Origin: Octopus vulgaris
Lineage: Eukaryota
DNA: 64,000 nucleotides
Assembly: GCA_951406725.2 (NCBI GenBank)
Contig: OX597821.1
Span: forward strand, 16,802,001-16,866,000
Reading direction: 5' to 3'
Under the pieces are notes generated by a model that was not told the origin of the DNA, did no database searches, and saw only the letters and a list, made by a program, of their open reading frames with translations. Within the stretch, counting starts at the first letter, position 1, and each line of letters opens with the position of its first letter. The translations under genes were made by a program, and so were the position numbers. Below, one piece after another: positions 3,886 through 60,514 of the stretch.

Positions 3886-3936
<51 letters not shown>

Positions 3937-3939
<3 letters not shown>

Positions 3940-4388
3940 CAAAAAGGGTAATAACATAAGTTATTAATACCAGTGGCCTAGCACAAAAGACGAATTAGTC
4001 ATTAGACAATATACTATTCATATAGAAATATAATAAAGGCTCCCAAATAAAGAAGCAACTGCTAAAACGCAAAGAGGGATAAATTCATCAAAGGAATGAA
4101 AATCAAAAACATTTACCATTATAGATGTATCCCAGACTGATCAGTTTCTACAAACCGTTAGAGCTACACGTGCTCTAACGCTCTGTGTATCTAGGATTTA
4201 GAAGGCTACCCACTGACAAACCTTGCCTTAGCAAACATATTCTGTAAGTTTTGCTAGAAAGAGGTAGAAACTGATCAGTCTGGGATACATCTGTAATGGT
4301 AAATGTGTTTGATTTTCATTCCATTGATGAATTTATCTCTCTTTGTATTTCTAGCACTTGCTTTCTTATTTGGGAGCCTTTATTATAT
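3937..4388. mobile_element. PLE-type non-coding fold-back insertion in (TA)n
   Basis: Imperfect inverted arms ~4027-4151 and ~4264-4388, extra tail 3937-4026 on the left arm, TA-rich tracts on both sides. Confidence 0.75.
4209..4284 (+). ncRNA. degenerate type I hammerhead ribozyme
   Basis: CCCA-CTGACAA-ACCT...(TAGCAAA/TTTGCTA)...AGGT-A-GAAA-CTGATCAG-TC-TGGG: stem I 4 bp, palindromic stem III, GUC triplet; core has G8>A. Confidence 0.6.
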
Positions 4389-4987
4389 ATATATATATAT
4401 TATATATATATATTATATTATATATTATTATATATATTATATTATATATTATTATATATATTATTATATATATATATTATATATATATTATATATATATA
4501 TATGCACATTTATTCGCTCATAAATGCAGCAGCATCGGCTTTGAAAGTAATAAACTAATTATAGGCTGTGTATTCAGTGTAGATAATGATTTGTCGTATG
4601 TCAGATATCAATCGATCCCATTATACAGAGAGAGAATGCGTTGCATCACTGGTTTTATTTTGGTTAAAGGTTTATTTCTTCTGATAACATTTCTTCCTGA
4701 AAAATAAATACAGTTCACCAAAGGCCTCCAGTTCTCTATGTCCAGCAAAACCTATGTTACGGATAGCTATCTCTGCACAAGAGAATATATTCAATTATAA
4801 GTATACAAAGACATTAGCAACCAACCACAGAGTGACCATAACCGAGATGAAGTTGTCGAATGATATCTGTTAATTACGCTACCTATTTGGAAAATAAACA
4901 AAATATATGTTTATTATAGATGGGATATATTTACTACACATTCATATATGTTTATTGAAAGTACATAACTAAATCAGATTCAAATAA

Positions 4988-10112: not shown

Positions 10113-10156
<44 letters not shown>

Positions 10157-10159
<3 letters not shown>

Positions 10160-10499
10160 AAAAAAGGAGATGTCGAACACGAGTGGTGATATATAAAAAA
10201 GGAAATGAAGAAAATGCTGACAAATAGTTGAAGTAATTTAAGTAATTTAATTAGGTGAAAGTTCTTTTTACCGGTTGCGCATTTGTTATGCTTATCAAAA
10301 TATAAAAGAGAGATTAGAGTTCCTTTCTTATAGAATTTTTCCTCTTATCTGGATAAGAGGAAAAATTCTATAAGAAAGGAACTCTAATCTCTCTTTTATA
10401 TTTTGATAAGCATAACAAATGCGCAACCGGTAAAAAGAACTTTCACCTAATTAAATTACTTAAATTACTTCAATTATTTGTCAGCATTTTCTTCATTTC

Positions 10500-10504
<5 letters not shown>
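10157..10504. mobile_element. PLE-type near-perfect palindrome in (TA)n with hammerhead-like motif in each arm
   Basis: Arms 10197-10349 and 10352-10504 (153 bp, one mismatch seen, 2-nt spacer); ~40-nt tail on the left only; motif TTGATAA-GCAT-aacaa-ATGC-GCAA-CCGG-TA at 10403-10432. Confidence 0.8.
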
Positions 10505-16624: not shown

Positions 16625-16703
<79 letters not shown>

Positions 16704-16707
16704 TATA

Positions 16708-17472
16708 AATATTTAAATAATGAGGGAGATAAATTAATATTAATTTTAATATCAATTTAAAACCAGTAGTCTAGCATACAAAAAATCTGAGAAGTCAGAG
16801 AAAATTCTAATATATGTGTATATTGGCAGGGCAGGACTGCTAGGTAGTCGGCCGTATGCTAGAAATAGATCATCAACGATCAAAACTACAAAGAAATTCA
16901 GCGAACACCAGAACCAAATTTGGCGGGCAGGACAGATGAAAATTTATATAAAAAACAGAATTAAAGCATACCTCGGTTTCGGCCTTTAACAAAGGAATTA
17001 CTTACATAATTCAAATGTCCGTGGCTTCATCAGTGCATTCGTTCAGTGTCAATGCAATTTACAAAACTAACCCCAGCTTTCTGTGCCAAGACAGACACGT
17101 GCTTAGTTTTACCGATTACATTAGGGATAAAATTTCAAATGTCTTGGTTCCGGCGCACTAAGAAATTCCTGAAGCGAAGAACTGCAGTAAATAATTCACT
17201 GCGGTTAGTGCTTGCTACTAGAGAACGTATTTATTTCAATATTTAAATAATGAGGGAGATAAATTAATATTAATTTTAATATCAATTTAAAACCAGTAGT
17301 CTAGCATACAAAAAATCTGAGAAGTCAGAGAAAATTCTAATATATGTGTATATTGGCAGGGCAGGACTGCTAGGTAGTCGGCCGTATGCTAGAAATAGAT
17401 CGTTTTGTAGTTTTGATCGTTGATGATCTATTTCTAGCATACAGCCGACTACCTAGCAGTCCTGCCCTGTCA

Positions 17473-17485
<13 letters not shown>
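16708..17485 (-). mobile_element. hammerhead-bearing non-autonomous PLE/retrozyme-like element, 530-nt monomer
   Basis: Direct repeat 16708-16871 = 17238-17401 (period 530), then an inverted copy of ~16810-16892 at ~17403-17485; (TA)n on both flanks; no credible ORF. Confidence 0.8.
16963..17039 (-). ncRNA. type I hammerhead ribozyme
   Basis: Minus strand: AATGCA-CTGATGA-AGCC..(GAATTA/TAATTC)..GGCC-GAAA-CCGAGG-TA-TGCTTT; intact CUGAUGA/GAAA/GUA core; predicted cut between 16969 and 16968; first pair of stem II is an A-C mismatch. Confidence 0.8.
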
Positions 17486-17525
<40 letters not shown>

Positions 17526-17530
<5 letters not shown>

Positions 17531-21977: not shown

Positions 21978-22143
21978 TAGTCCTGCCAGACTATTTTCGT
22001 GCCCCTCCCCCGAATGGGGGTGGGAATTGGAATTTTTGAACTGCTTTTTTGAACTACTTTAGAAGAAAAACTTTCTATAGGTTTCCCAGTTTTGTGGGAA
22101 ACCAATATTCGTAATTTTTGTGTTGTCTAATTTCAACAGAATA

Positions 22144-23546
22144 ATGTCTGTTGAAATTATTCACGAAAGTAGTGCTTTTGAGGAGAGCAATGTTAAAAGA
22201 TTTTCTACGGTAGCCGCAGTGGCTACCGAGAACATTGACTGCGATGTCAATCAGCTCGTCGAGCTATTTAAAAGAATGCAAGAGGAGGGTGGTGATGTTA
22301 AAATATCACCCTCCGCCAGTATCGTGGAGACCGAGAAGCGGACCGTAGTGTTTAAAAATTTCTGTCCACAAAGCAGAAGGTTCAAACACTTTGAAAAAAG
22401 CACCATCGAGAAATGCCTGTCCCCGATTTGGAAGGACATCGTGTACGTCGCCAGGGGACGGGCATATGGCACTGTGGATGTCCGCTTCTCGGGGGAAGAA
22501 ATGGCCCGCGGGCATTCTGTGAACCCCCTAAAAACCAAGGAGGTGGTACTTTTCCCAAGCTATAGGGGACGCAGGACGTCCCGGGTCAGGATTGTAGAAG
22601 CCCCGCCGGTAGTAGATCCGGTAGAGGTAGTGGCCGCCCTGTTATAAAAAATGGCGGACAAAATAAAAATACTTCAAGTAACATCCTCTACCCCTCTATT
22701 TTGGCTCGGGCGTAACATTAACATATTAATTCAATGAACAGCGGAGGACCTGCAGTTCCTTCCTGAGAGGGTGCTCGTGGGCGAGAACGTAGCCCTCAGG
22801 GTACAGGTCGAAGGCCGAAAACCCACCTGTTACGCCTGCGGCAAAAAGGGCCACATTCGTGTAGACTGTCCAGACAAGCAAAAGAAACCGCAGACACCAG
22901 GCCCCTCAGATAATAAAAAAGTCCCTACCCTTGCAAACACACCTACCCCTACAAAAACAAAAAATCCCACTCCTGCTGTTACGGTGCCAACCCCAAAACA
23001 AACTGAAGAAAAACTCAGCCCTCGCACTCACAAACCCCTACACTATTAAAACCTCCCACCCCCCTAAAAACTGCGGCGCCTACCGAACAAACTATTGCTA
23101 CCCCAGACGATACCATGGAGGTATCAGAGGGGGGATTTACACCAGTTCGTAAAAGAATTCGTGCAGCATCCCCGTCCACATCCCCTACAAAAAATAAGAA
23201 AAACAAAGACATACCACAGACACGGAAAAAAAAATCCCGCTCAACTGGCCCAGAAAAAGAAGACAAAAAAGAAAATGAACTCATATTAATTGAATTCGAC
23301 ACACAAGACAATTACATAAACGATATTGTGGTTCAGCATCAGTCAGCAAGACTGTACAACAAATACAAAGATCGAAATAGACACGCGTGGATTGCGGAAA
23401 CAACGTTCAAACAATTAAAAGACAGACACCCAAACGCCATCCGGCATATCGCGAACTTGCCGGACTATCTGAAGAAAGAGGAGAAAGAAGAGGCCCACAA
23501 ACGTGTGGTGAGGTCGGCCCCCACCTCTCCAACGAAATGTAAGTAG
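22144..23546 (+). pseudogene. LINE ORF1 (RNA-binding, CCHC zinc knuckle), disrupted
   Basis: Fragments 22120-22647, 22771-23049 (CYACGKKGHIRVDC = CX2CX4HX4C) and 23115-23546; in-frame stops at 22645 and 22735 plus frameshift. Confidence 0.8.
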
Positions 23547-23563
23547 AACTTTTACTTTTTGTA

Positions 23564-26500
23564 ATGGCTTCGCTTAACCTTGGTTGTTTAAATGTGCGTG
23601 GTCTGAGTTCGAAGTGGAAGCAGGCTTGTTTCCTCGACGACCTTAGATCTCATGATATACATGTGATGGTCGCTACAGAGACCAAGCTGGACAGCCTATA
23701 AACCTTCTCGCCTCTCCTGAATGGCTACGAGAAAATCATGTCTCCTGGCCAGACCGGAGGGCGAGGGGGCGTAGTGGTACTGATCCGTAAAGACTTGGCT
23801 CTACAGACAAGTACAGTCTATGTAGACCCAGAAGGTGGGCTGGTCGTCCTTGATGTGACATACAGCAGTAAGGCCTTCAGGTTGATCGGACTCTATGCAC
23901 CTTGTGCTAGAGGTTTCCAAACTGATTTTTATCGGCGCCTAGAGGGCTTTCTCGTGACGTCGAAGACTTTAGTGATATTAGGGGACTTTAATGCTATCGT
24001 TGACGTACACATCGATAGCGTTGGCTCGATCTATAGGAAAGTGAACTCACGTCTCGTGGATCTGCTTAAGCGGTTTCAGCTGGCAGATCGTTACAGACTT
24101 GACCATCCGAATGTCCCAGAGTGGACCTGGATGAGTGGCGACGGAAGGTTCAAGTCTTATCTAGACAGGATAGTGATAAGAACTAGAGATAAGTCTAGTT
24201 TTAGTTGTCCACAGCTCGTCCAGGTGCCCTATACTGACCATAGAATGGTCACGTGTAGACTGGACATAGATAGCACACTTAAGCTAGGAACCGGCTACTG
24301 GAAGCTGAACAAGTCTACTTTGACACCCGAGGCATACCGTAGCCGGATTAAGGTGTTAGTGCAGAGGGCGTTAACCGGAGCCGTGGTTAATAACCGGTGG
24401 TGGTTCGCCCTCAAAAGAGCCATTCGATTCGAGTCCATTAGATTTAGTAAACAACTAAGACTAGATAGGGCTAGAATAGAAGGGCAACTAGTTAAGAACT
24501 TAGAGGAGGCGTTGAGGTTGGGCTCTGCATCTCACATTTTAGCGGCGAGAACGGCATTAGACCGTCACCTCAAAACCAAACATGAGGGATGTAGAGTCCG
24601 GGCTAAAGTACGAGCATTGGGCCGTGAGGGAATTAATGTTGCCGGATGGGCCCGTACGATAGAAACACAGCGTGGAAACGATGCCACAATTGGGTCTCTT
24701 GTTGATGAAAACGGATGCACGATCAAGAAGCGGAACGAGATGTGTGAGGCACTTCACAAGCACTTCGCCGAGTTGTTCGGGAGGTGCGGGACGCTGGATC
24801 ATGGTGAGGCCCTTAGGGACTTCCTGTCTGTTGGCCCGCGCCTCTCGACACGAGAGGCTGAGTGCTGTGAAGGGCCAATCACAGCCGAGGAAGTAATCGA
24901 GGTGTTGGGCAAGTGCCCCGGGGAGAAGTCGCCGGGTCTCGATGATCTGCCCTATGAATTTTATAGAAGTATGCCAGACTTGTTCGGGCACCTGCTGGCT
25001 AGCGTCTACGCCAACTGGCAGCAGAATGGGAGAATTCCCAAGTCTGCGAGCCGGGGGGCGGTGACGTTGATCAGGAAGGACCCGAACAAGGAGGACGAGA
25101 TAGGGAACTTCAGGCCCATAACTCTGTTAAACACAGAGTTAAAGATTCTGGCCAAGGTGCTAGCAAAAAGGTTGGCGCGGGTCGTGGACAAACTTGTCGG
25201 GGAAGCGCAAACGTGCGCTATCCCCGGCAGAAAGATCCATGACAATCTCCACCTTATACGCTACTCCTTAGAGAGGGTGGGGAAGCTTTCTGGCACAGGG
25301 GGAGCACTGGTACATTTAGACCAGTCCAAAGCGTTTGATAGGGTCGACCATCGGTACCTGGCGGCGGTCCTCGGAGAGGCTGGCCTAGGCCCGACCTTTC
25401 GAGGTTGGATCGCTCCTTTGTATAGCGACATCGAGTCTGTAGTCAAGGTGAACGGTTCCTTTTCGAAGCCGTTCAGGATCGAGCGTTCAGTTCGTCAAGG
25501 GTGTCCCCTGTCCTCGCTCCTATACGTATTGGCTCTTGAGCCTTTGCTGCGGAAGTTGGAGGCACTAGGGGGCGCGCCGCATGATCTATGGTGTGGAAGA
25601 GGAGCTACGGCGTATGCGGATGACACCTCCATCATCGTGGCAGACGAAGGCCAGCTCCCAGTGGTGGAAGAGGCCATCAAAATCTACGAGGCGGTGGCAG
25701 GAGCAAAGCTTAACAAGGACAAGTCGGTCGGTTTGCAACTCGGCACCTGGAGGGGCAAGCCGATGCCGTCCAATAACGTCGTAGGGCGTTGAACGGAAGG
25801 TCCTGTTAAGCTGCTCGGAGTCTGGTTCGGGTCAGACCTCCAGATTGAGAAAAATTGGAGTGAGGTGGCCAACAAGGTGACCGCTCTAACCCAGACCTGG
25901 TCTGGGCGGGCGTTATCCCTGCTAGGGAAGGCGGAGGTGGTGCAGATGTTTATAGCATCAGTAATCACCTACCGTCTGACCGTGGTGCCTTGCCCCGATT
26001 TGTGGCTGAACAAGTTGGAGAGAATCCTTTTCCGATTTTTGTGGAAAGGAGGAAAGCCACTTGTAAAGCGCTCTGTCTGCTGCCAGAAACCGCTAAAGGG
26101 TGGGCTAGGGATGCCTTGGCTGAGGATGCGAAAACTCGCGTTAAGGTTGAGGCATCTCTGGCTTTACCTGGATGGAGAGCAGGTGTGGTCACCGCACGTC
26201 CGGTTCTACCTTCCCCAGTTAACATCCCTAACGGACATCGGTGCATGGATCAAGCGGAGACCTAAACTGAGTGAATGGCATTTGGAGTGCCGTCAGGCGC
26301 TCCAGCTACTATCTCGGGTGGGCAACGCCGGCAACAGGAGTTCCACCACGGATTTCTATAGCGGGTTAGTGGAGATTAAGTCCGAAGACGCCTTGGGGAG
26401 ACCCTGGGCTACGATGAAAATCAGTTGATCAACCTGTTCCGGAGGACGTTCGGGCCGGGGTTTCTGGATAATTACCAGAAATCCCTGGCCTGGCAGTGTT

Positions 26501-26964
26501 TCCGTGCGGCTTTACCTGTTCGCGACAAGCTGTCAAGGCACGGTAGTGCCGTCTCGCCGACATGCCCGCGATGTGAGCAGGATATGGAGACCGTCTTGCA
26601 CGCATTCGTGGTGTGTCCGGAGTTATCGGGACTGATAGCTTTTGTTGAACAACTGTTATCAGTGATGGGAAGAGTACAGCTATCAGCTGAGTCTATCATC
26701 GAGATTGTGCCGCCCCCTTTCCTTAACAGGGAAAGAAAGGCTTGTTTTTTCTGTGTAGTAGCCATACTGAAAGAAACAGTATGGAAGACGCGTACGAAAG
26801 GTATAGTGACAGGCACCTTTGTCTCCGGCCAGGGGTTGATTAACTTTTTTAGTTACCACCTCAGTAGCAAAATCAGGCTGGAGAAGAGGTGTCTGTCACG
26901 AGATATGTTTGTGAAAAGATGGAAGCCTGTGGCATGGAAGATGGGTATGTTTGGCACCAGGTAA
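23564..26964 (+). pseudogene. LINE ORF2: APE endonuclease, reverse transcriptase, C-terminal zinc finger; disrupted
   Basis: Starts MASLNLGCLNVRGL; motifs LGDFN, LDRI, TDH, GYWKLN, KSPGLD, NFRPITLLN, KAFDRV, VRQGCPLS, YADD, CPRC..H..C; stops at 23699 and 25790, frameshift near 26400-26425. Confidence 0.93.
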
Positions 26965-30075: not shown

Positions 30076-30482
30076 CATCATCATCATCATTGTTCGACCG
30101 TGGTCGAGACAATGGAATTTACCAGGCTACGCCAGACTTCACGGTCCATCATGGCATTACGGAGGTCCTGTTGCTGGATGCCTGTATCCCTGGAGATTAC
30201 ATCAGGGTAGGAGAGTTTGCGCCCTCTGGTACTGCGAGTAGATGGCTTCCAGAGGATAAGAGTAGAAATTACTTCTTTTTCAGCTCTACAACAATGTCCA
30301 GCAAACTGGACTCTCCTACCTTTCACAAGAGATGACACAGGTGGTAGTTTCCCATATATTTGCATTTTGGTTGGATGACGCTTCCACGAGAGATTTTGAG
30401 CTCTCATAAGGAGGCGGGTGTAGGTTCCATCCAACCGCCTCTCAATCTTCTTTGATAACGTCCAGGTTTCTGAGCATAAGGC
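30076..30482 (-). mobile_element. RTE-type LINE 3' fragment
   Basis: ORF SETWTLSKKIERRLDGTYTRLLM..RRVQFAGHCCR..AMMDREVWR typical of RTE C-termini, ending directly in a (TGA)n tail. Confidence 0.85.
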
Positions 30483-30648
30483 CAACAAATTCAGGAGAAG
30501 TAGTAAGTCGATTACATCGAACCCCAGTGCTCAAATAGTACATGTTTTATCGACTTCGGCTGAGACTGAACTCAGAACATGAAGATGGATGAAATACCGC
30601 TAAATATTTTGTCTGGCGTGCTAACTATTTAGCCGGTTAGCCGCCTTT
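30483..30648 (-). mobile_element. SINE family D, degenerate
   Basis: aagtcgattacatcgaaccccagtgc ... gaaataccgctaa ... ccgcctt. Confidence 0.7.
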
Positions 30649-33797: not shown

Positions 33798-34062
33798 TGG
33801 TAGATAGATAGATACATACATACATACATACATACAAAGAGAGGTCGATATATATATATATATATATATTATATAATTAGGGCTTAGTAAAATAAAATAA
33901 ATTACTTTGCCACATACTGAACTTAATAGAAATAGCAGCCAAAAAAATTTTTTCTTAGCATTTCTACTACTTAAAGAAAATTTCTCTCAGATAATATTTA
34001 CTCCAGAAAGCTCACGAAGGTTTGGGGGTAAATACAGAAAAATATCACAAGTACATAGATCG

Positions 34063-34125
34063 TTTGAGTACGTCAACGTTTCAAGATTAGCCAAATAAAA
34101 TCAGCATTTCTTTCGTCAGCTCAAA
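34063..34125 (-). ncRNA. type I hammerhead ribozyme
   Basis: Reverse complement of the motif at 34975-35037; intact core. Confidence 0.88.
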
Positions 34126-34974
34126 ATTTCTTAATTTGGATTTGGAAACACTAAAAAGAAGGAACTTTACCTATCATCGAACTTGTCGCTTCAGATAAAC
34201 CACTCCAACTAAACTGTGTCAACAAATTCAAAATGCGCAGGCGTAAAATTCTGCACTCCCCATTCCACCCACGTGGTCTATCTAGCAAACACTATATTTT
34301 AACCGCGAGAACCAAGGCAGTATGACCGAGAGAAATGAATTATAATATCAACAATTGAGGGTAAAATTAATTAATTAATCAATTTCACCAAGTGTTCAGT
34401 ATGTAAAATAAAAATAAATTAGTAAAATAAAATAAATTACTTTGCCACATACTGAACTTAATAGAAATAGCAGCCAAAAAAAATTTTTCTTAGTATTTCT
34501 ACTACTTAAAGAAAATTTCTCTCAGATAATGTTTACTCCAGACAGCTCACGAAGGTTTGGGGGTAAATACAGAAAAATATCACAAGTACATAGATCGTTT
34601 GAGTACGTCAACGTTTCAAGATTAGCCAAATAAAATCAGCACTAAGCCCTAATTATATAATGTAATATTTTGAATTCGCCTTAAATGGTCCTTTTGAATA
34701 CTGAACACTTGGTGAAATTGATTAATTAATTAATTTTACCCTCAATTGTTGATATTATAATTCATTTCTCTCGGTCATACTGCCTTGGTTCTCGCGGTTA
34801 AAATATAGTGTTTGCTAGATAGACCACGTGGGTGGAATGGGGAGTGCAGAATTTTACGCCTGCGCATTTTGAATTTGTTGACACTGTTTAGTTGGAGTGG
34901 TTTATCTGAAGCGACAAGTTCGATGATAGGTAAAGTTCCTTCTTTTTAGTGTTTCCAAATCCAAATTAAGAAAT

Positions 34975-35037
34975 TTTGAGCTGACGAAAGAAATGCTGAT
35001 TTTATTTGGCTAATCTTGAAACGTTGACGTACTCAAA
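34975..35037 (+). ncRNA. type I hammerhead ribozyme
   Basis: TTTGAG-CTGACGA-AAGA..TCTT-GAAA-CGTTGACG-TA-CTCAAA: stem I 6 bp, stem II 4+ bp, stem III ACGT/ACGT, GUA triplet, predicted cut after 35031. Confidence 0.9.
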
Positions 35038-35320
35038 CGATCTATGTACTTGTGATATTTTTCTGTATTTACCCCCAAACCTTCGTGAGCTGTCTGGAGT
35101 AAACATTATCTGAGAGAAATTTTCTTTAAGTAGTAGAAATGCTAAGAAAAATTTTTTTTGGCTGCTATTTCTATTAAGTTCAGTATGTGACAAAGTAATT
35201 TATTTTATTTTACTAAGCCCTAATTATATAATGTAATATTTTGAATTCGCCTTAAATGGTCCTTTTACATACTGAACACTTGGTGAAATTGATTAATTAA
35301 TTAATTTTACCCTCAATTGT

Positions 35321-35367
<47 letters not shown>

Positions 35368-46719: not shown

Positions 46720-46732
46720 TATGTAATATATA

Positions 46733-47110
46733 TATTACATACATATAAGAGTGATGGCCACTAGGTGAACATCCATTATGCTAGTGGACATCCATTATCC
46801 ATTATGGTCTGACCACTAAGTAAAGAAATCGGGTTTGTGATTAATCTTTATATTTTGTATCTTTTCATTTGCCTTGCTTGCTTACGTTCTGGCGTTTGCT
46901 GACTTTTCTTGAGAACAATCTTTTCTTAGTGGTCAGACCATATGGGGTCTACCTCTAGCATAATGGATGTCCACTTATTGGTCATCCCTCTCATATGTAT
47001 GTAATATAATTTTTCTGAATCTTCAGATTTTTCAATATGCTAGGCCACTGGTTTTAAATTGATACTAATCAAATTAATATTCAATTTTTCACCCTTATTA
47101 TTTAAATTTA
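46733..47110. mobile_element. PLE-type 3'-end fragment with inverted duplication
   Basis: 46733-46810 is a rearranged inverted copy of ~46925-47007; 3' terminus TGCTAGGCCACTGGTTTTAAATTGATA..CCCTTATTATTTAAAT matches the 16.7-kb element end. Confidence 0.75.
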
Positions 47111-47147
47111 GATATATAGATATTGATATATACACACATATATCGCT

Positions 47148-48411: not shown

Positions 48412-48415
<4 letters not shown>

Positions 48416-48635
48416 AACAATCTTACTTAGAAATGGATGCGTGCGTTCAGTATATAATAAATTAATAAATAAAATAAAACATATGCATATATACATACAT
48501 ATATGTACGTACCTACCTCTACATGTATATATACATACATATATGAGTTGGTGTTCTGTACCCATATATACATGTATATATACATGTAGAGGTAGGTACG
48601 TACATATATGTATGTATATATGCATATGTTTTATT
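48412..48635. repeat. fold-back insertion in TA tract, 64-bp arms
   Basis: Arms 48473-48536 / 48572-48635; the right part resembles 54136-54207. Confidence 0.7.
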
Positions 48636-49142
48636 GTATGTTTTTATGTATGTATATATATATATATATATATAATACACATATACACACATACACACAC
48701 ATATTTAAATGTATGTATGTATGAATGTATACTGGTCTTCCACAAACATTACCAGGACTTGTGCTTCGGTGTTGGAGGACTTCTATAGCCATTCATGACG
48801 GAAGGAGATCTTTTGTTAGCCTAAACATTTAGAAATTACAACGAAATGTCTCTGAAATTTCTCCTTTCCGTTTTACAAAAAGTCACAAGTAAGCAATTAT
48901 GCTACTGCTACAGCATTAGAACGGCACAACTTTAGAATCGTCTGAGCTTCGGAAAAATGCCTTGCGTTATTGATTTCGGTTCTTAAGTAAGGAGTTAAAA
49001 ATCTACTTGAGGTCAACTATTGTCAGAAATGCCTCCGATGTCGATAAAATAACTGCGGAGCACAGGGGTCGAAGCTATCAGCTATCTTCTTTTCAATAAT
49101 GTGAGGCTTTGTAATAAAATAATTAATATCATATACAGTTCT

Positions 49143-52825: not shown

Positions 52826-53300
52826 TAAGGACATCCCACAAGTTCTGTCCTATTTTACCTTTTTTTTTTAAATTGAATGAAATTTAATAGTATTTTAGAA
52901 TGCTTAATAGAATTCAAAATTATTTTATGCATTTGTGTACAATTAAACTAATTAAATATTAAATAATAGAATCAAAATTTCTTCGACTAAAACCCTTTCT
53001 AACATGGAAGTATCCAAAGAGCATTTGAGGTACAGAATGCTTTGTGAGTACAAAGATGGAAACTCTGCAGCCGAAGCGACTCAAATCATACAGTTTATGG
53101 TAAAGAATGCAAAATTCAGAAGTGGAGATTTCAGACTTCAAGATGAAGATCGAATAGGACGTCCAGTTGAGTTTGGTGATAAGCTCCTAGAGTCATTACT
53201 TGAAGAAAATCCTGGATTATCAATTAATGAATTGGCAATAAATCTCACTTCAAACCATACAACTTTTCATCGACATTTTCAACAACTTGGCGCATAACCT
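52826..53300 (+). mobile_element. mariner 5' relic (N-terminal HTH region)
   Basis: ORF 53004-53297 MEVSKEHLRYRML..GNSAAEA..FRSGDFRLQDEDRIGRP..ELAINL; internally deleted. Confidence 0.8.
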
Positions 53301-53411: not shown

Positions 53412-53440
<29 letters not shown>

Positions 53441-53443
<3 letters not shown>

Positions 53444-53921
53444 CGTTATATTTCGGAATGGTCATATTGCCAGTTTAGCCAATAAAAACACACGCACTAT
53501 ATATTTGGTGTTATTTTGCTTCAGTGTTATTTATTTTTTACATTAATCTTAATATTATTTCTTTCGTCACACTCCTGTGACTGCATCAGGATCCTTTGTT
53601 TTCTTCTTTCTTATTTGTGTCTCTCCTTACTAACCGTCTGAGAAATACAAAATGGCTGACGGTTAGTAAGGAGAGACACAAATAAGAAAGAAGAAAACAA
53701 AGGACCCCTGATGCAGTCACAGGAGTGTGACGAAAGAACTCTGGCCGAAATAAGATTAAGATTAATGTAAAAAATAAATAACACTGAAGCAAAATAACAC
53801 CAAATATATAGTGCGTGTGTTTTTATTGGCTAAACTGGCAATATGACCATTCCGAAATATAACAATATCTGTTTCAACACACGACTTTACATAAAAAATC
53901 TTGCACAACAAATATTTAAAC
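53441..53921. mobile_element. PLE-type fold-back insertion in (TA)n with hammerhead-like motif (53708-53741)
   Basis: Arms 53441-53638 / 53658-53868, 19-nt spacer, ~50-nt tail on the right; CTGATGCA-GTCAC-aggagt-GTGAC-GAAA-GAAC-TC. Confidence 0.75.
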
Positions 53922-53963
<42 letters not shown>

Positions 53964-56153: not shown

Positions 56154-56207
<54 letters not shown>

Positions 56208-56330
56208 GAAGGTTTGAAAATGCAATTTTAAAGATGTTTATTCATTTGAATAAACAACTTTACAATTGCATCTTCCAACCTTCTTTCATATATATTTCCA
56301 TGCGTACGGTATCTTACAACTTTAGTTCAT

Positions 56331-57023: not shown

Positions 57024-58013
57024 TACATATATATATAAGTAATGATAGAGAAGGAAAATAGAATCATTTGTTGTATGCAGTGAACGTGCTTCATCGGCTT
57101 ACTACTAGGAACATACCCTATATATACAAACATAGGTAAATACGTATGCACACAAAATGTTGCCCACACATACATGCATATAAATGACTATATAATATAT
57201 ATAGTTAGATATGTGACACGTAAATGTATGGGTTTATGGGGGGGGGTGTAAGAATTTGCGAATACGTTAATCTTTTATCCGTTATCTTGTACGTGTTTCA
57301 GTTACTGGACTGAAGCCATTCTGCGTCACCACACTAAGGGATTTTTTTATGGAAAGAATTGAGCCTAACACATATTTTCAGACGGCTAGATTACACAGGC
57401 TAAACAAACCAGAACAGGTTGACAAACATAAACACAAACACAGACACAAATACTTTTTGCATATGCGAGTATCTATAAGACGGGCTTCTTTCAGTTTCTG
57501 TCAAACAATTCATTAATAACACAAAACGTTTTCAACGGCACTTTCCCAGTGTACCACGGAATCATGTCTTTGAGAAGCAAACTTCTCATCGTCTCTACAC
57601 GTGTATGTTCTGACTGAATATCTCCAATGCCATTCATGTATATACAAATATATCAGAATCTATATCGCAGTATAAGAGATGATTATTATGACTGATCCAC
57701 CAATGAATTTTCCTCGTTAACTGAATAGCCTTCTAATTAATTTAGATTGGATGCCACTAAATGCACTTCCCCAAAATAGATAGCGTCAAGTAAAAGGATA
57801 ATTAATTAATATTAATTTATTACTGATTAATTGAATTAATTAACTTTTCAATCAATAACGTGAGCTACGAAGCGATGTCTCTGAAAAGTGCAATCTTTTC
57901 CGCTCTATAAGCAGTCCTTACTCTGTTAAAATGGATATATGCGTGTTGATGGCTAAGCACGCGTGATTGTGTCTCTATGTAATCAGTCACATCTGGGTCT
58001 GTGCGTTTGAGCC

Positions 58014-59810
58014 TGCATGTTAAAATCCATGTTAAACCTATACAAAGAAGGACACACCGACAAAGAATATGACTATATAACCAATTTCACAAGTAAAACC
58101 AGCCAATTCTACGGTATCCCAAAGATACACAAAAGTGAGAAAATAAGTAACGCATGCAAGATAGCCACAGACAAAATAATTAAAGTCCCTAATCCTAATG
58201 ACCTCAAATTGAGACCTATAATAGCAGGTCACGCATGTGAAACCCACCGCCTTAGTAACTTTTTAGATACCCTCTTAAAACCACTCCTTCAACATGTCAA
58301 AAGCTATATAAGGGACTACCTGGATATGCTCAATCACCTGCCTAAAACAATAAACAAAAACACCCTACTAGTATCCTTCGATGTAGTCAACCTCTATTCC
58401 AATATCCCCCAAAACCTAGGAATAGAGGCAATTCAATTCTGACTAGAGAATTACGCCAACGAACTTCCACATCGCATCAAAAAATAATTCCTAATAGAAG
58501 GGCTTAAATCCATCCTGGAAAATAGCTACTTCGACCTCAAAGACAACTTCTACCGACAAAAATCGGGGACTGCGATGGGTACACGAATGGCCCCCTCCTT
58601 TGCCAACCTAGTCATAGGATATCTAGAAATAAGTCTGTATCGTAAGATTCTAGAAAGATATGACAGCCCTTTCTCCCTCTACATAGAAAACAACTGGAAG
58701 AGATAACTAGATGAGTGTTTCATTCTTTGGCATGAAAATATAGAGAAACTTAAAGAATTCCAAGCACTTTTAAATGGACTGGACGAAGACATCCAATTCA
58801 CGATGGAATATAGCCAGCAACAACCCCCCTTCGACATCCTCATTAAGAAATCTAATAACGTAATAGAAACAGATATATAATATAAGCCTACGAATTCCAA
58901 GCAATATCTACCATTCAATTCATGCCACCCCAGACACACCAGAATGAATATCCCCTTCAATCTAGCAAAAAGGATATGTACTATAGTTTCTAATGCAAAC
59001 ACCAGAGACACACAACTACATGAACTAAAAGATACACTCATCACCAGGAACTACCTCCCTTCACTAATTGACATATGCATTCAACGTGCCCGTCAACTCA
59101 ATGTCCACGAACTCAGACATCCCAAATTAAAGAAAAATTTACAACCAAAAGCCCTACCATACATCTACACACACAACCCTCTCAACAATGAAGCCTTCGA
59201 CACCATCCTCCAAAACATACCCCTGCTAAAAATGGACCACATAATGAACTTAACCCTCCAAACACACACCATCATAAAAAGCAAGAGACAGCCCAAATCT
59301 ATGAAAAGTCTCCTAACACAAGCCCGAATACGCTCAACAACACAGAAGCCGACAGTAAAAAAATGTGGAAGACCCAATTGTGGAATATGCGATTTTCTAA
59401 TTGAGGGATCAGAGTTCTCCTTCAAACAGAGACGTTTCACAGTGAAAAGCAACTTCACATGTGCTTCAGAAAACCTGATATACACATTAACCTGCTTTGG
59501 GTGTCAAGAGTAATACATAGGCCAAACAAAAAATAGTCTACGTAAAAGAATGGTCCTGCACAGATCACAGATAAAAATTCCCCAAAACAGAAAAATAGCA
59601 TTCAGCCAACACATAGACATTAGCGCCAACAACAAAAATCCAAGCTTTAGGATTTTTCCCCTCTACCAATTCAGGGACGATGCAACCTGGAGCCAACGAA
59701 TTGGTAAGGAAACTCACTTCATTACAAAATACAGGCCCCTTCTGAACGCCTCTACGACAAACAACATACCTACCTCGGCCTTGGAATCGCACAAATACAC
59801 ACGCAAATAA
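58014..59810 (+). pseudogene. Penelope-like element ORF (RT plus GIY-YIG endonuclease, Neptune-like), 5'-truncated and disrupted
   Basis: FYGIPKIHK, LRPIIA, SFDVVNLYSNIP, GTAMGTRMAPSFANL, WKR*LDECF, NIPFNLAKRICTIVS, linker CGRPNCGIC, NLIYTLTCFGCQE*YIGQTKNSLRKRM..H..H; several stops and a frameshift. Confidence 0.92.
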
Positions 59811-60514
59811 GTATAAATAGACCGAAAGAAATGAGTTATAGCGATTTGTATTTTGTGGAAAATGATATTGTTAGCAGAGAATACCAAATTCCAGGATAAA
59901 ACAACGTTATAACTGGATGAGAAGGTGACAAGAGGCACATTTGTCCAATGAATCTTACGTTTGGATTGAAATAGATAATAGGGTTGCCAGAATTCACTAA
60001 CAATTACTAACACATCATTTGGCAATTGGAAACTTTTCCTCATTCATTATTTCACTTCTGACTGTCTTTTTAAGTTGTGAAATGATACGAAAATAACAAT
60101 AACAAGAACAGCAACACGAATAGTACTTAAATTTGCATATTGATTCTGAAAGTGAGAATAGTAGAGAATTAATTTGAGCAATGGTTGAAATAGAACAGTA
60201 GTTACGAAATGAAATATTAATGGTAGTTGGAATGGAAAGTTTGAGAGAAATTGAATTTCTTTGATCTTGAAATCTCTAGAATACAGACAATTTAAGGAGA
60301 TTATTCTCATATGTTATAAGACTGTTTGTATGAAGATGTGAATATGATATTCTTAACGAACACGTTCTCATGAACATTTTCCTCAAGAACGTCCTTGGCC
60401 TCCAAAAATGTTTGTGAGAACATCCTTGAACTCCGCTTCAAAGTTCATATAAAAAATTTCACGTACACTGCCAAAACTGCTCCGAATTTCAATTTACTCT
60501 TCTCAAAGTATATA

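Follow-up and report, generated by a model that had tools for sequence, protein, structure and literature searches.

Penelope-like elements (PLEs) leave insertions with inverted arms and a tail on one side only, and how they do so is an open problem. In a 64,000-nucleotide stretch of the Octopus vulgaris genome (the window, numbered here from its first letter), four small non-coding families, A to D, carry such insertions together with a predicted RNA fold, and the question raised by the locus is what this fold contributes. The fold probably serves as a two-site internal priming platform, offering one site to each cut end of a (TA)n target and working with a reverse transcriptase (RT) borrowed from a Penelope-type element. 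Such a platform would provide a concrete twin-priming model for the inverted arms and would explain the known one-sided Penelope tail.

The four families lie at 16.7–17.5 kb (A), 33.9–35.3 kb (B), 46.7–47.1 kb (C), and 3.9–4.4 kb (D) of the window. The family A insertion occupies 16709..17486 on both strands, with inverted arms and (TA)n flanks at 16627-16712 and 17473-17527. Its long arm, a partial unit plus a full unit on the minus strand (17401 to 16709), terminates at a site designated S2, and its short inverted arm on the plus strand (17404-17486) terminates at a second site, S1. Family B spans 33860..35331 on both strands, with its S1 end at ~33868 and its S2 end at ~35322. The 5′-truncated family C insertion spans 46732..47115 (S1 end ~46733, S2 end ~47110), and the family D insertion spans 3933..4395 (S2 end ~3937, S1 end ~4388). 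At the S1 end of family D is a TT-interrupted TA array on the plus strand (4381..4503) whose unit resembles the D loop tract; either slippage while copying or later turnover could have produced it.

The insertions display the PLE signature of 5′ truncation, an inverted copy, a one-sided tail, and a (TA)n target. Units of families A–D measure 430–570 nt, are non-coding, often stand in tandem, and have no reported similarity to RT or endonuclease (EN) proteins; across the wider group of related families, referred to below as the clan, units measure ~430–640 nt and are tandem in many loci. A pattern scan places a putative type I hammerhead-like core (CUGAUGA … GAAA) at 16977..17033 on the minus strand of family A and two putative cores in family B (34981-35021, plus strand; 34079-34119, minus strand). 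The core pattern is present in the units of families A, B, C, D, I, J, and M and is doubtful in K, and an Rfam scan gives no hammerhead match at E ≤ 10 for the family A core and none for the other units scanned. Judged by their sequence, the elements are non-autonomous PLEs of the hammerhead retrozyme kind, where the hammerhead label denotes the core pattern together with stems assigned by eye.

This anatomy has published counterparts. PLEs have been described with partial tandems, an inverted 5′-truncated copy, often a tail at one end, and a preference for (TA)n (Craig et al. 2021, PMC8557442), although the accessible part of that paper gives the tail without RNA structure. Non-LTR retrozymes, proposed to be non-autonomous PLE derivatives, are likewise built from short non-coding units that are low in GC, stand in tandem, and carry type I hammerheads (PMC7229834; bioRxiv 10.64898/2026.07.22.740005). 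The clan differs from the published retrozymes in its larger units and in occurring mostly as dispersed inverted pairs in (TA)n. The retrozyme papers, as far as their accessible text extends, present minimum-energy circle folds and phylogeny, with no conserved priming domain or fixed ends.

Searches of the genome returned 700–2,300 first-look candidates for each of families A–D. Further families with the identical layout were found through inverted insertions between TA arrays and through profile searches, covering 1.26 Mb of unselected sequence as well as locus flanks. The unselected 1.26 Mb contain 29 clan insertions, and the number of clan copies genome-wide is put, very roughly, at 60,000. 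The predicted fold appears to span about twenty small non-coding families, a wider distribution than the four families of the original prediction, and it is also larger than first described.

Read 5′ to 3′, the predicted layout consists of an optional hairpin; an enclosing helix, P1, around hairpin P2, the AU-rich S1 tract, and the small hairpin P3; a short linker; hairpin P4; and the S2 tract. An outer helix, P0, encloses both S1 and S2 and is predicted in six of eight usable tandem copies. In family A, where all of these features are on the minus strand, P1 comprises 10 bp (16854-16863 with 16770-16779) identified by fold prediction and covariation. P2 (16830..16853) has an internal loop and is closed by a G-C pair followed by CU. 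The S1 tract (16807..16826), which joins short arms to (TA)n, and P3 (16786..16799) complete the loop. Outside P1, the AU-rich hairpin P4 (16725..16764) has a G-C base and is followed by S2 (16700..16724), the tract that joins long arms to (TA)n. S1 and S2 would be priming sites 1 and 2, respectively. Each lies a few bases 3′ of a hairpin base, which in most families ends in CC followed by U.

In the other window copies, P1 is predicted at 35178-35188/35267-35277 in family B (P4 at ~35282-35311), at 46955-46962/47036-47043 in family C, and at 3978-3984/4059-4065 in family D (P4 at ~3947-3971). These four helix pairs, their loop sizes of 74 (A), 78 (B), 73 (C), and 74 (D), and the termination of the short arms in the TA-rich tract agree with the original prediction. 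The value of 78 at 35 kb reflects a copy-specific duplication, with 73 being the family B value. The 4-kb copy had been noted to have a decayed P1 partner, and decay is present; the decayed strand is the 5′ one (4059-4065), and an intact strand is found in the copy's own inverted arm at ~4331. What had been described as an AT-rich tail ending near CCCT is hairpin P4, whose 3′ strand supplies the CCC, and the long arm terminates just past it, at the second fixed site. The domain had also been taken for a 3′-end fold; it is instead internal to the hammerhead-to-hammerhead unit, ~100–190 nt behind one core and ~100–200 nt before the next.

Three of the four window domains fold much better than shuffled sequences (z −6.2, −5.4, and −3.9). 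The decayed family D copy at 4 kb falls short of this (z −1.9), whereas an intact D-family copy reaches z −5.8. The sense strand folds better than its complement in 15 of 20 representatives, and G-U pairs are frequent. Of note, three related families have C-UUCG-G as the loop of P3 (L199:7340-7482, L264:7995-8136, and L249:6414-6554). UUCG is a stable RNA tetraloop.

Conservation was assessed with 20 divergent representatives (median pairwise identity 52%) drawn from outside the L066 and L053 families; for the second profile seed, truncated, chimeric, or decayed clusters (from L113, L066, L133, L031, L053, and L088) were excluded. RNAalifold applied to a MAFFT alignment of all 20 predicts zero pairs because the 3′ strand of P1 is out of register by two columns between subgroups. 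In sequence-only alignments of the subgroups (13 and 6 sequences), P1 is predicted in both and is the sole helix predicted. A permutation analysis compares the pairing of own-family strands with that of other-family strands, using windows from sequence-only columns and one representative for each of seven groups, with family M excluded. Own-family pairing is better for P1 (median p 5e-4), P2 (p 6e-4), and P4 (p 4e-4), and mismatched-helix controls show no own-family effect. P3, put forward originally as a second small hairpin, is predicted as such, but its own-family preference is not significant in this analysis (p 0.10). P0 pairs in a family-specific manner with p values of 0.001–0.005, for windows chosen after the pairing was seen. 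A 38-bp P0 in one M copy was rejected as an inversion artefact, and the P0 test for M used another copy.

Before fitting, the alignment of 13 sequences shows 94% pairing in P1, and 5 of the 10 P1 pairs carry double changes. A covariance model built from these sequences recovers copies of B, I, and K that had been held out (E 6e-5 to 0.05) and misses family M. The fitted alignment (29 rows, some of them half copies) has double changes at 27 of 30 pairs but is biased towards the model. Within families A–D, variants common to at least three copies occur at 7 of 334 paired and 22 of 253 unpaired positions (p 4e-4), and five of the seven preserve the pair. Families A and C, at 16.8 and 47 kb, are 71% identical across the domain, so that their shared helix alone is not independent evidence; family B at 35 kb is 46% identical, and both partners differ in 5 of its 10 P1 pairs. 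A degenerate P1 pattern has no match in metagenome contigs. The covariation called for as a check on the fold is borne out by the family-specific pairing of P1, P2, P4, and P0, and on these comparisons the RNA domain of the PLE-type retrozymes is genuine and conserved, with compensatory changes in P1.

The ends of the arms are similarly constrained. Outward 3′ ends fall into two ~30-nt windows in 243 of 268 cases (102 at S1 and 141 at S2, with 25 elsewhere), family B having been scored separately from seven other families. S2 counts are inflated because 60 of the first 180 loci were fetched by S2-containing queries; the 95 insertions obtained with upstream queries or from unselected DNA (without B) have these two sites as well. 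In families J, K, M, and N, the short-arm ends read from search tables are also located within the loop tract. Clustering of junctions in this tract had been anticipated and is observed, while the second site, S2, which is used at least as often, had been missed. The S1–S2 interval, i.e., the tail, measures ~70–130 nt and is present on one side only, and S1 arms run ~50 to more than 600 nt through P2 and P1.

The two sites are used in combination. Among 86 insertions with two outward ends, 64 join S1 with S2, two join S1 with S1, none joins S2 with S2, and 20 have one off-site end. When both ends are on site, the S1+S2 combination accounts for 64 of 66 insertions (p 6e-17), and both S1+S1 insertions carry a SINE at one junction. 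These counts bear on the alternative that the sites are set by AT-rich microhomology, or by an endonuclease acting on a DNA intermediate, and that the fold serves circular-RNA stability, hammerhead folding, or protein binding. Several of the 25 off-site ends do lie at short AT-rich spots, and the autonomous family E described below uses a different fold. The tail has been ascribed to EN-mediated resolution (Craig 2021, PMC8557442), and the accessible text of Frangieh 2024 (PMC11167929) cites the need of a tail for EN recognition in the Penelope element of D. virilis. However, the P4 stem between the sites, long and AT-rich, is almost never a junction, both sites are 3′ of a hairpin base across families, and 64 heterotypic pairs out of 66 are not expected from microhomology alone. 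In the Poseidon element PAc, moreover, the tail ends correspond to measured RT start sites (PMC11167929). The frequent G-U pairs and the better folding of the sense strand also weigh against this alternative, which we regard as distinctly improbable.

The S1+S2 combination could also arise if priming took place once, at S2, and a fold-back second strand, halting at S1, was then joined to the other target end. Such a route would accommodate the 30 of 40 insertions in which the S2 arm includes the entire S1 arm, as well as the single-arm copies of A and D, which mostly end at S2. In the remaining 10 of these 40 S1+S2 insertions, however, the S1 arm extends farther upstream than the S2 arm and contains sequence absent from it. 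The arms are thus separate copying events, and fold-back from one cDNA is excluded there. Single-arm copies with S1 only are also common (10 in B and 10 in C), and fold-back as a general route is highly improbable.

Twin priming on the fold remains the preferred reading. It builds on the two sites, their S1+S2 pairing, the family-specific pairing of P1, P2, P4, and P0, and the (TA)n flanks, all of which are shown here. In the proposed mechanism, a TA array would be cut on both strands by a PLE endonuclease. Priming would occur at S1, inside P1 and 3′ of hairpin P2, for one 3′ end and at S2, 3′ of hairpin P4 and inside P0, for the other, with short pairing of the target end to the AU tracts probably aiding priming. 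The two cDNAs would copy the same sequence in the upstream direction, passing around tandem or circular units, and joining of their truncated ends would produce an inverted repeat that retains the S1–S2 tail at just one side. The strict pairing would be explained most simply by a single RNA that has both sites and is acted on by two RT active sites. We infer RNA binding, priming by base pairing, the use of one RNA rather than two, and the identity of the RT. The internal priming role first assigned to the domain fits the clustering of junctions in its loop.

Several loci show related arrangements. Copies at L144, L092, L073, L080, and L089 start just after S2, stop at S1 in the unit that follows, and are flanked by TA at either end; this is the arrangement expected if the S1 cDNA halts where the second target end is held. 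At L004, L137, and L149, family A arms stand head to head with arms from other repeat families whose ends likewise lie in (TA)n; either mixed twin priming or sequential insertion would give this arrangement. Some single-arm copies stand head to head with other repeat families and raise the prospect that two RNAs may serve one insertion.

The closest published system is a Poseidon PLE, whose protein cuts and extends both strands in vitro and for which a dimer model and two internal start sites flanking the tail have been reported (Frangieh 2024, PMC11167929). In PAc the start site shares no homology with the cut DNA (PMC11167929), which makes pairing a presumed rather than an established basis of priming. 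Like the clan, Poseidon-Ac has two internal starts downstream of the hammerhead, an interval between them that equals the tail, AT-rich targets, and cutting and extension of both strands. It is one element with a single AC-rich stem loop inside the ORF and a tail of 30–40 nt, and the accessible text of its report is without covariation or end-pairing analysis. In contrast, the clan is non-coding and combines a tail of ~70–130 nt with a multi-helix fold in ~20 families and a near-strict S1+S2 rule. Two internal start sites are, then, already known for one Poseidon element, as is internal initiation in a stem-loop (PMC11167929), and the original statement that the fold is undescribed holds in a narrower sense: neither the covarying fold nor strict S1+S2 pairing was found in the literature covered, with subscription papers and the PAc supplement figures outside that coverage.

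S1 lies inside P1, and the topology of a tract in a helix-enclosed loop, 3′ of a hairpin, is the one feature held in common with telomerase RNA. PLE RTs are close relatives of telomerase, and the fold had been called telomerase-RNA-like at the outset. The likeness is superficial, and the fold is probably not a telomerase-like repeat maker. Rfam returns no telomerase match, with sub-threshold miRNA and snoRNA matches only (for one earlier scan, among the matches listed, the best 150 of 255). A candidate pseudoknot or switch between the 3′ strand of P2 and the CCAC linker, the sole candidate noticed, was rejected, its covariation score on 13 sequences being equalled in 205 of 500 shuffles. P2 is read through in every copy, with cDNAs continuing for hundreds of bases beyond, so that this hairpin is not a template-boundary stop, and a second site lies outside the loop. 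The telomerase RNA core and the DRT10 ncRNA (PMC12632851) also present a short tract in a helix-closed loop 3′ of a stem-loop, and some loops contain A-B-A′-like repeats. In those systems the hairpin is a hard boundary and the product consists of iterated repeats (PMC12632851), whereas in the clan copying proceeds through the hairpin, there is another, equivalent site, and a pseudoknot is unsupported.

Tract length lends no support to reiterative (TA)n synthesis, a further part of the original prediction. The two sites have perfect TA tracts of equal length (median 15.5 at S1 and 15 at S2, p 0.52), without correlation between ends, and unprimed 5′ ends that have a tract show a similar TA length (13 versus 17, p 0.50). 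A broader form of the idea has the RT stall at P2, realign on the S1 loop, make (TA)n or loop-unit repeats, and then read through, such that the arrays are partly element-made. The junction repeats do correspond to the loop of the respective family. Of 25 A-S1 ends, 4 carry (CA)≥4, compared with 0 of 54 A-S2 ends and 0 of 77 S1 ends of other families, and the opposite ends are pure TA. One of 21 junctions in family C carries ~2.5 tandem loop units, D-loop-like repeats are found at 2 of 10 D-S1 ends, and the loop is faithfully copied at only 4 of 22 A-S1 junctions, with 56 internal loops showing no length change. Summed flanks have a median of 34 units against 16–24 simulated, and the tract is missing at 23 of 243 primed ends compared with 26 of 62 5′-truncated ends. 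The few repeats at S1 that match the loop would be in keeping with occasional slippage.

Slippage at initiation is reported for the UnaL2 LINE/SINE system (PMC1636434), where, as in the clan, a stem-loop precedes a short start tract and is shared by non-autonomous partners. According to the accessible text, UnaL2 differs in that its one site is terminal, its RT is that of a LINE, and inverted arms are absent. Within the clan, however, reiteration is found at 0 of 35 B-S1 ends, and family A shows no full loop repeat. In TA arrays of random DNA, (CA)≥4 (42) is commoner than (CA)2 (17), and post-insertion slippage can thus explain the A cases. Short CA interruptions evidently grow into longer runs in TA arrays throughout this genome; primer choice by pairing would yield a similar repeat pattern, and target loss at 5′ joints would yield the tract asymmetry. 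The read-through of P2 in every copy and the failed pseudoknot test also weigh against stalling and realignment, which appear quite unlikely.

A related reading treats the S1 loop as a primitive telomerase-style template, on which an RT held behind P2 adds several loop-derived repeats before read-through, and is considered unlikely. If true, tens of thousands of insertions would build the (TA)n, (CA)n, and (TG)n arrays of the genome, and the clan would represent a living link from the priming of retrotransposons to the addition of repeats by telomerase. Owing to the closeness of PLE RTs to telomerase, the origin of repeat addition is directly testable in the S1 loop, the evidence for reiteration being weak. 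The domain is a small (~250 nt) substrate with natural compensatory variants, in a genome that contains many intact 784-aa RT-endonuclease frames.

These frames belong to family E, a candidate driver of apparent Neptune/Nematis type. The intact 784-aa frame has a Pfam RVT_1 match (E 3.5e-8) and a GIY-YIG match at E 4e-4, narrowly below the cut-off, in the order RT, a CX2-5CxxC linker visible in the translation, and GIY-YIG at the C terminus. Family E looks recently active, with many near-identical genomic copies that have the intact frame, an upstream ORF, and a 4.4-kb tandem unit. In the window, 58011-59760 on the plus strand is a broken family E copy (RT plus GIY-YIG), whose best genomic relatives match it at 94% identity across 99 aa. 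The ends of family E fall at two points separated by 34 nt (14 ends at one and 11 at the other), which are paired in 7 of 7 scorable inverted copies, and its sites are predicted in helix-closed loops of a fold unlike that of the clan. The occurrence of the same pairing on another fold suggests that the pairing rule may be general to PLEs and this fold specific to the clan.

Comparison of one full autonomous family E unit with the clan for pLTR homology gives no significant match, and the covariance model matches 0 of 9 PLE-ORF loci as candidates for an autonomous element with this fold (~2 of 2,800 Mb covered). In two of seven 5′-truncated E copies, the element runs directly into clan sequence in sense orientation, without intervening TA (L199:7332 and L195:7011), one of them exactly at S2. 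These fusions hint weakly that the family E RT may switch templates; sequential insertion fits too.

The window contains additional small inverted insertions between TA arrays, with one-sided tails of 42–57 nt, at 10155-10503, 48413-48652, 53434-53922, and 56202-56330. Some of these, like several ORF-bearing PLE 3′ ends, carry a short common motif just past the first site, which suggests a second, different fold class. Other mobile sequences, labelled from their motifs, include a frame at 22081-26964 (plus strand) that we take to resemble an L1/Tx1-type LINE with endonuclease and RT, a presumably RTE-like fragment at 30087-30530 (minus strand), and a presumably mariner-like fragment at 52956-53297 (minus strand).
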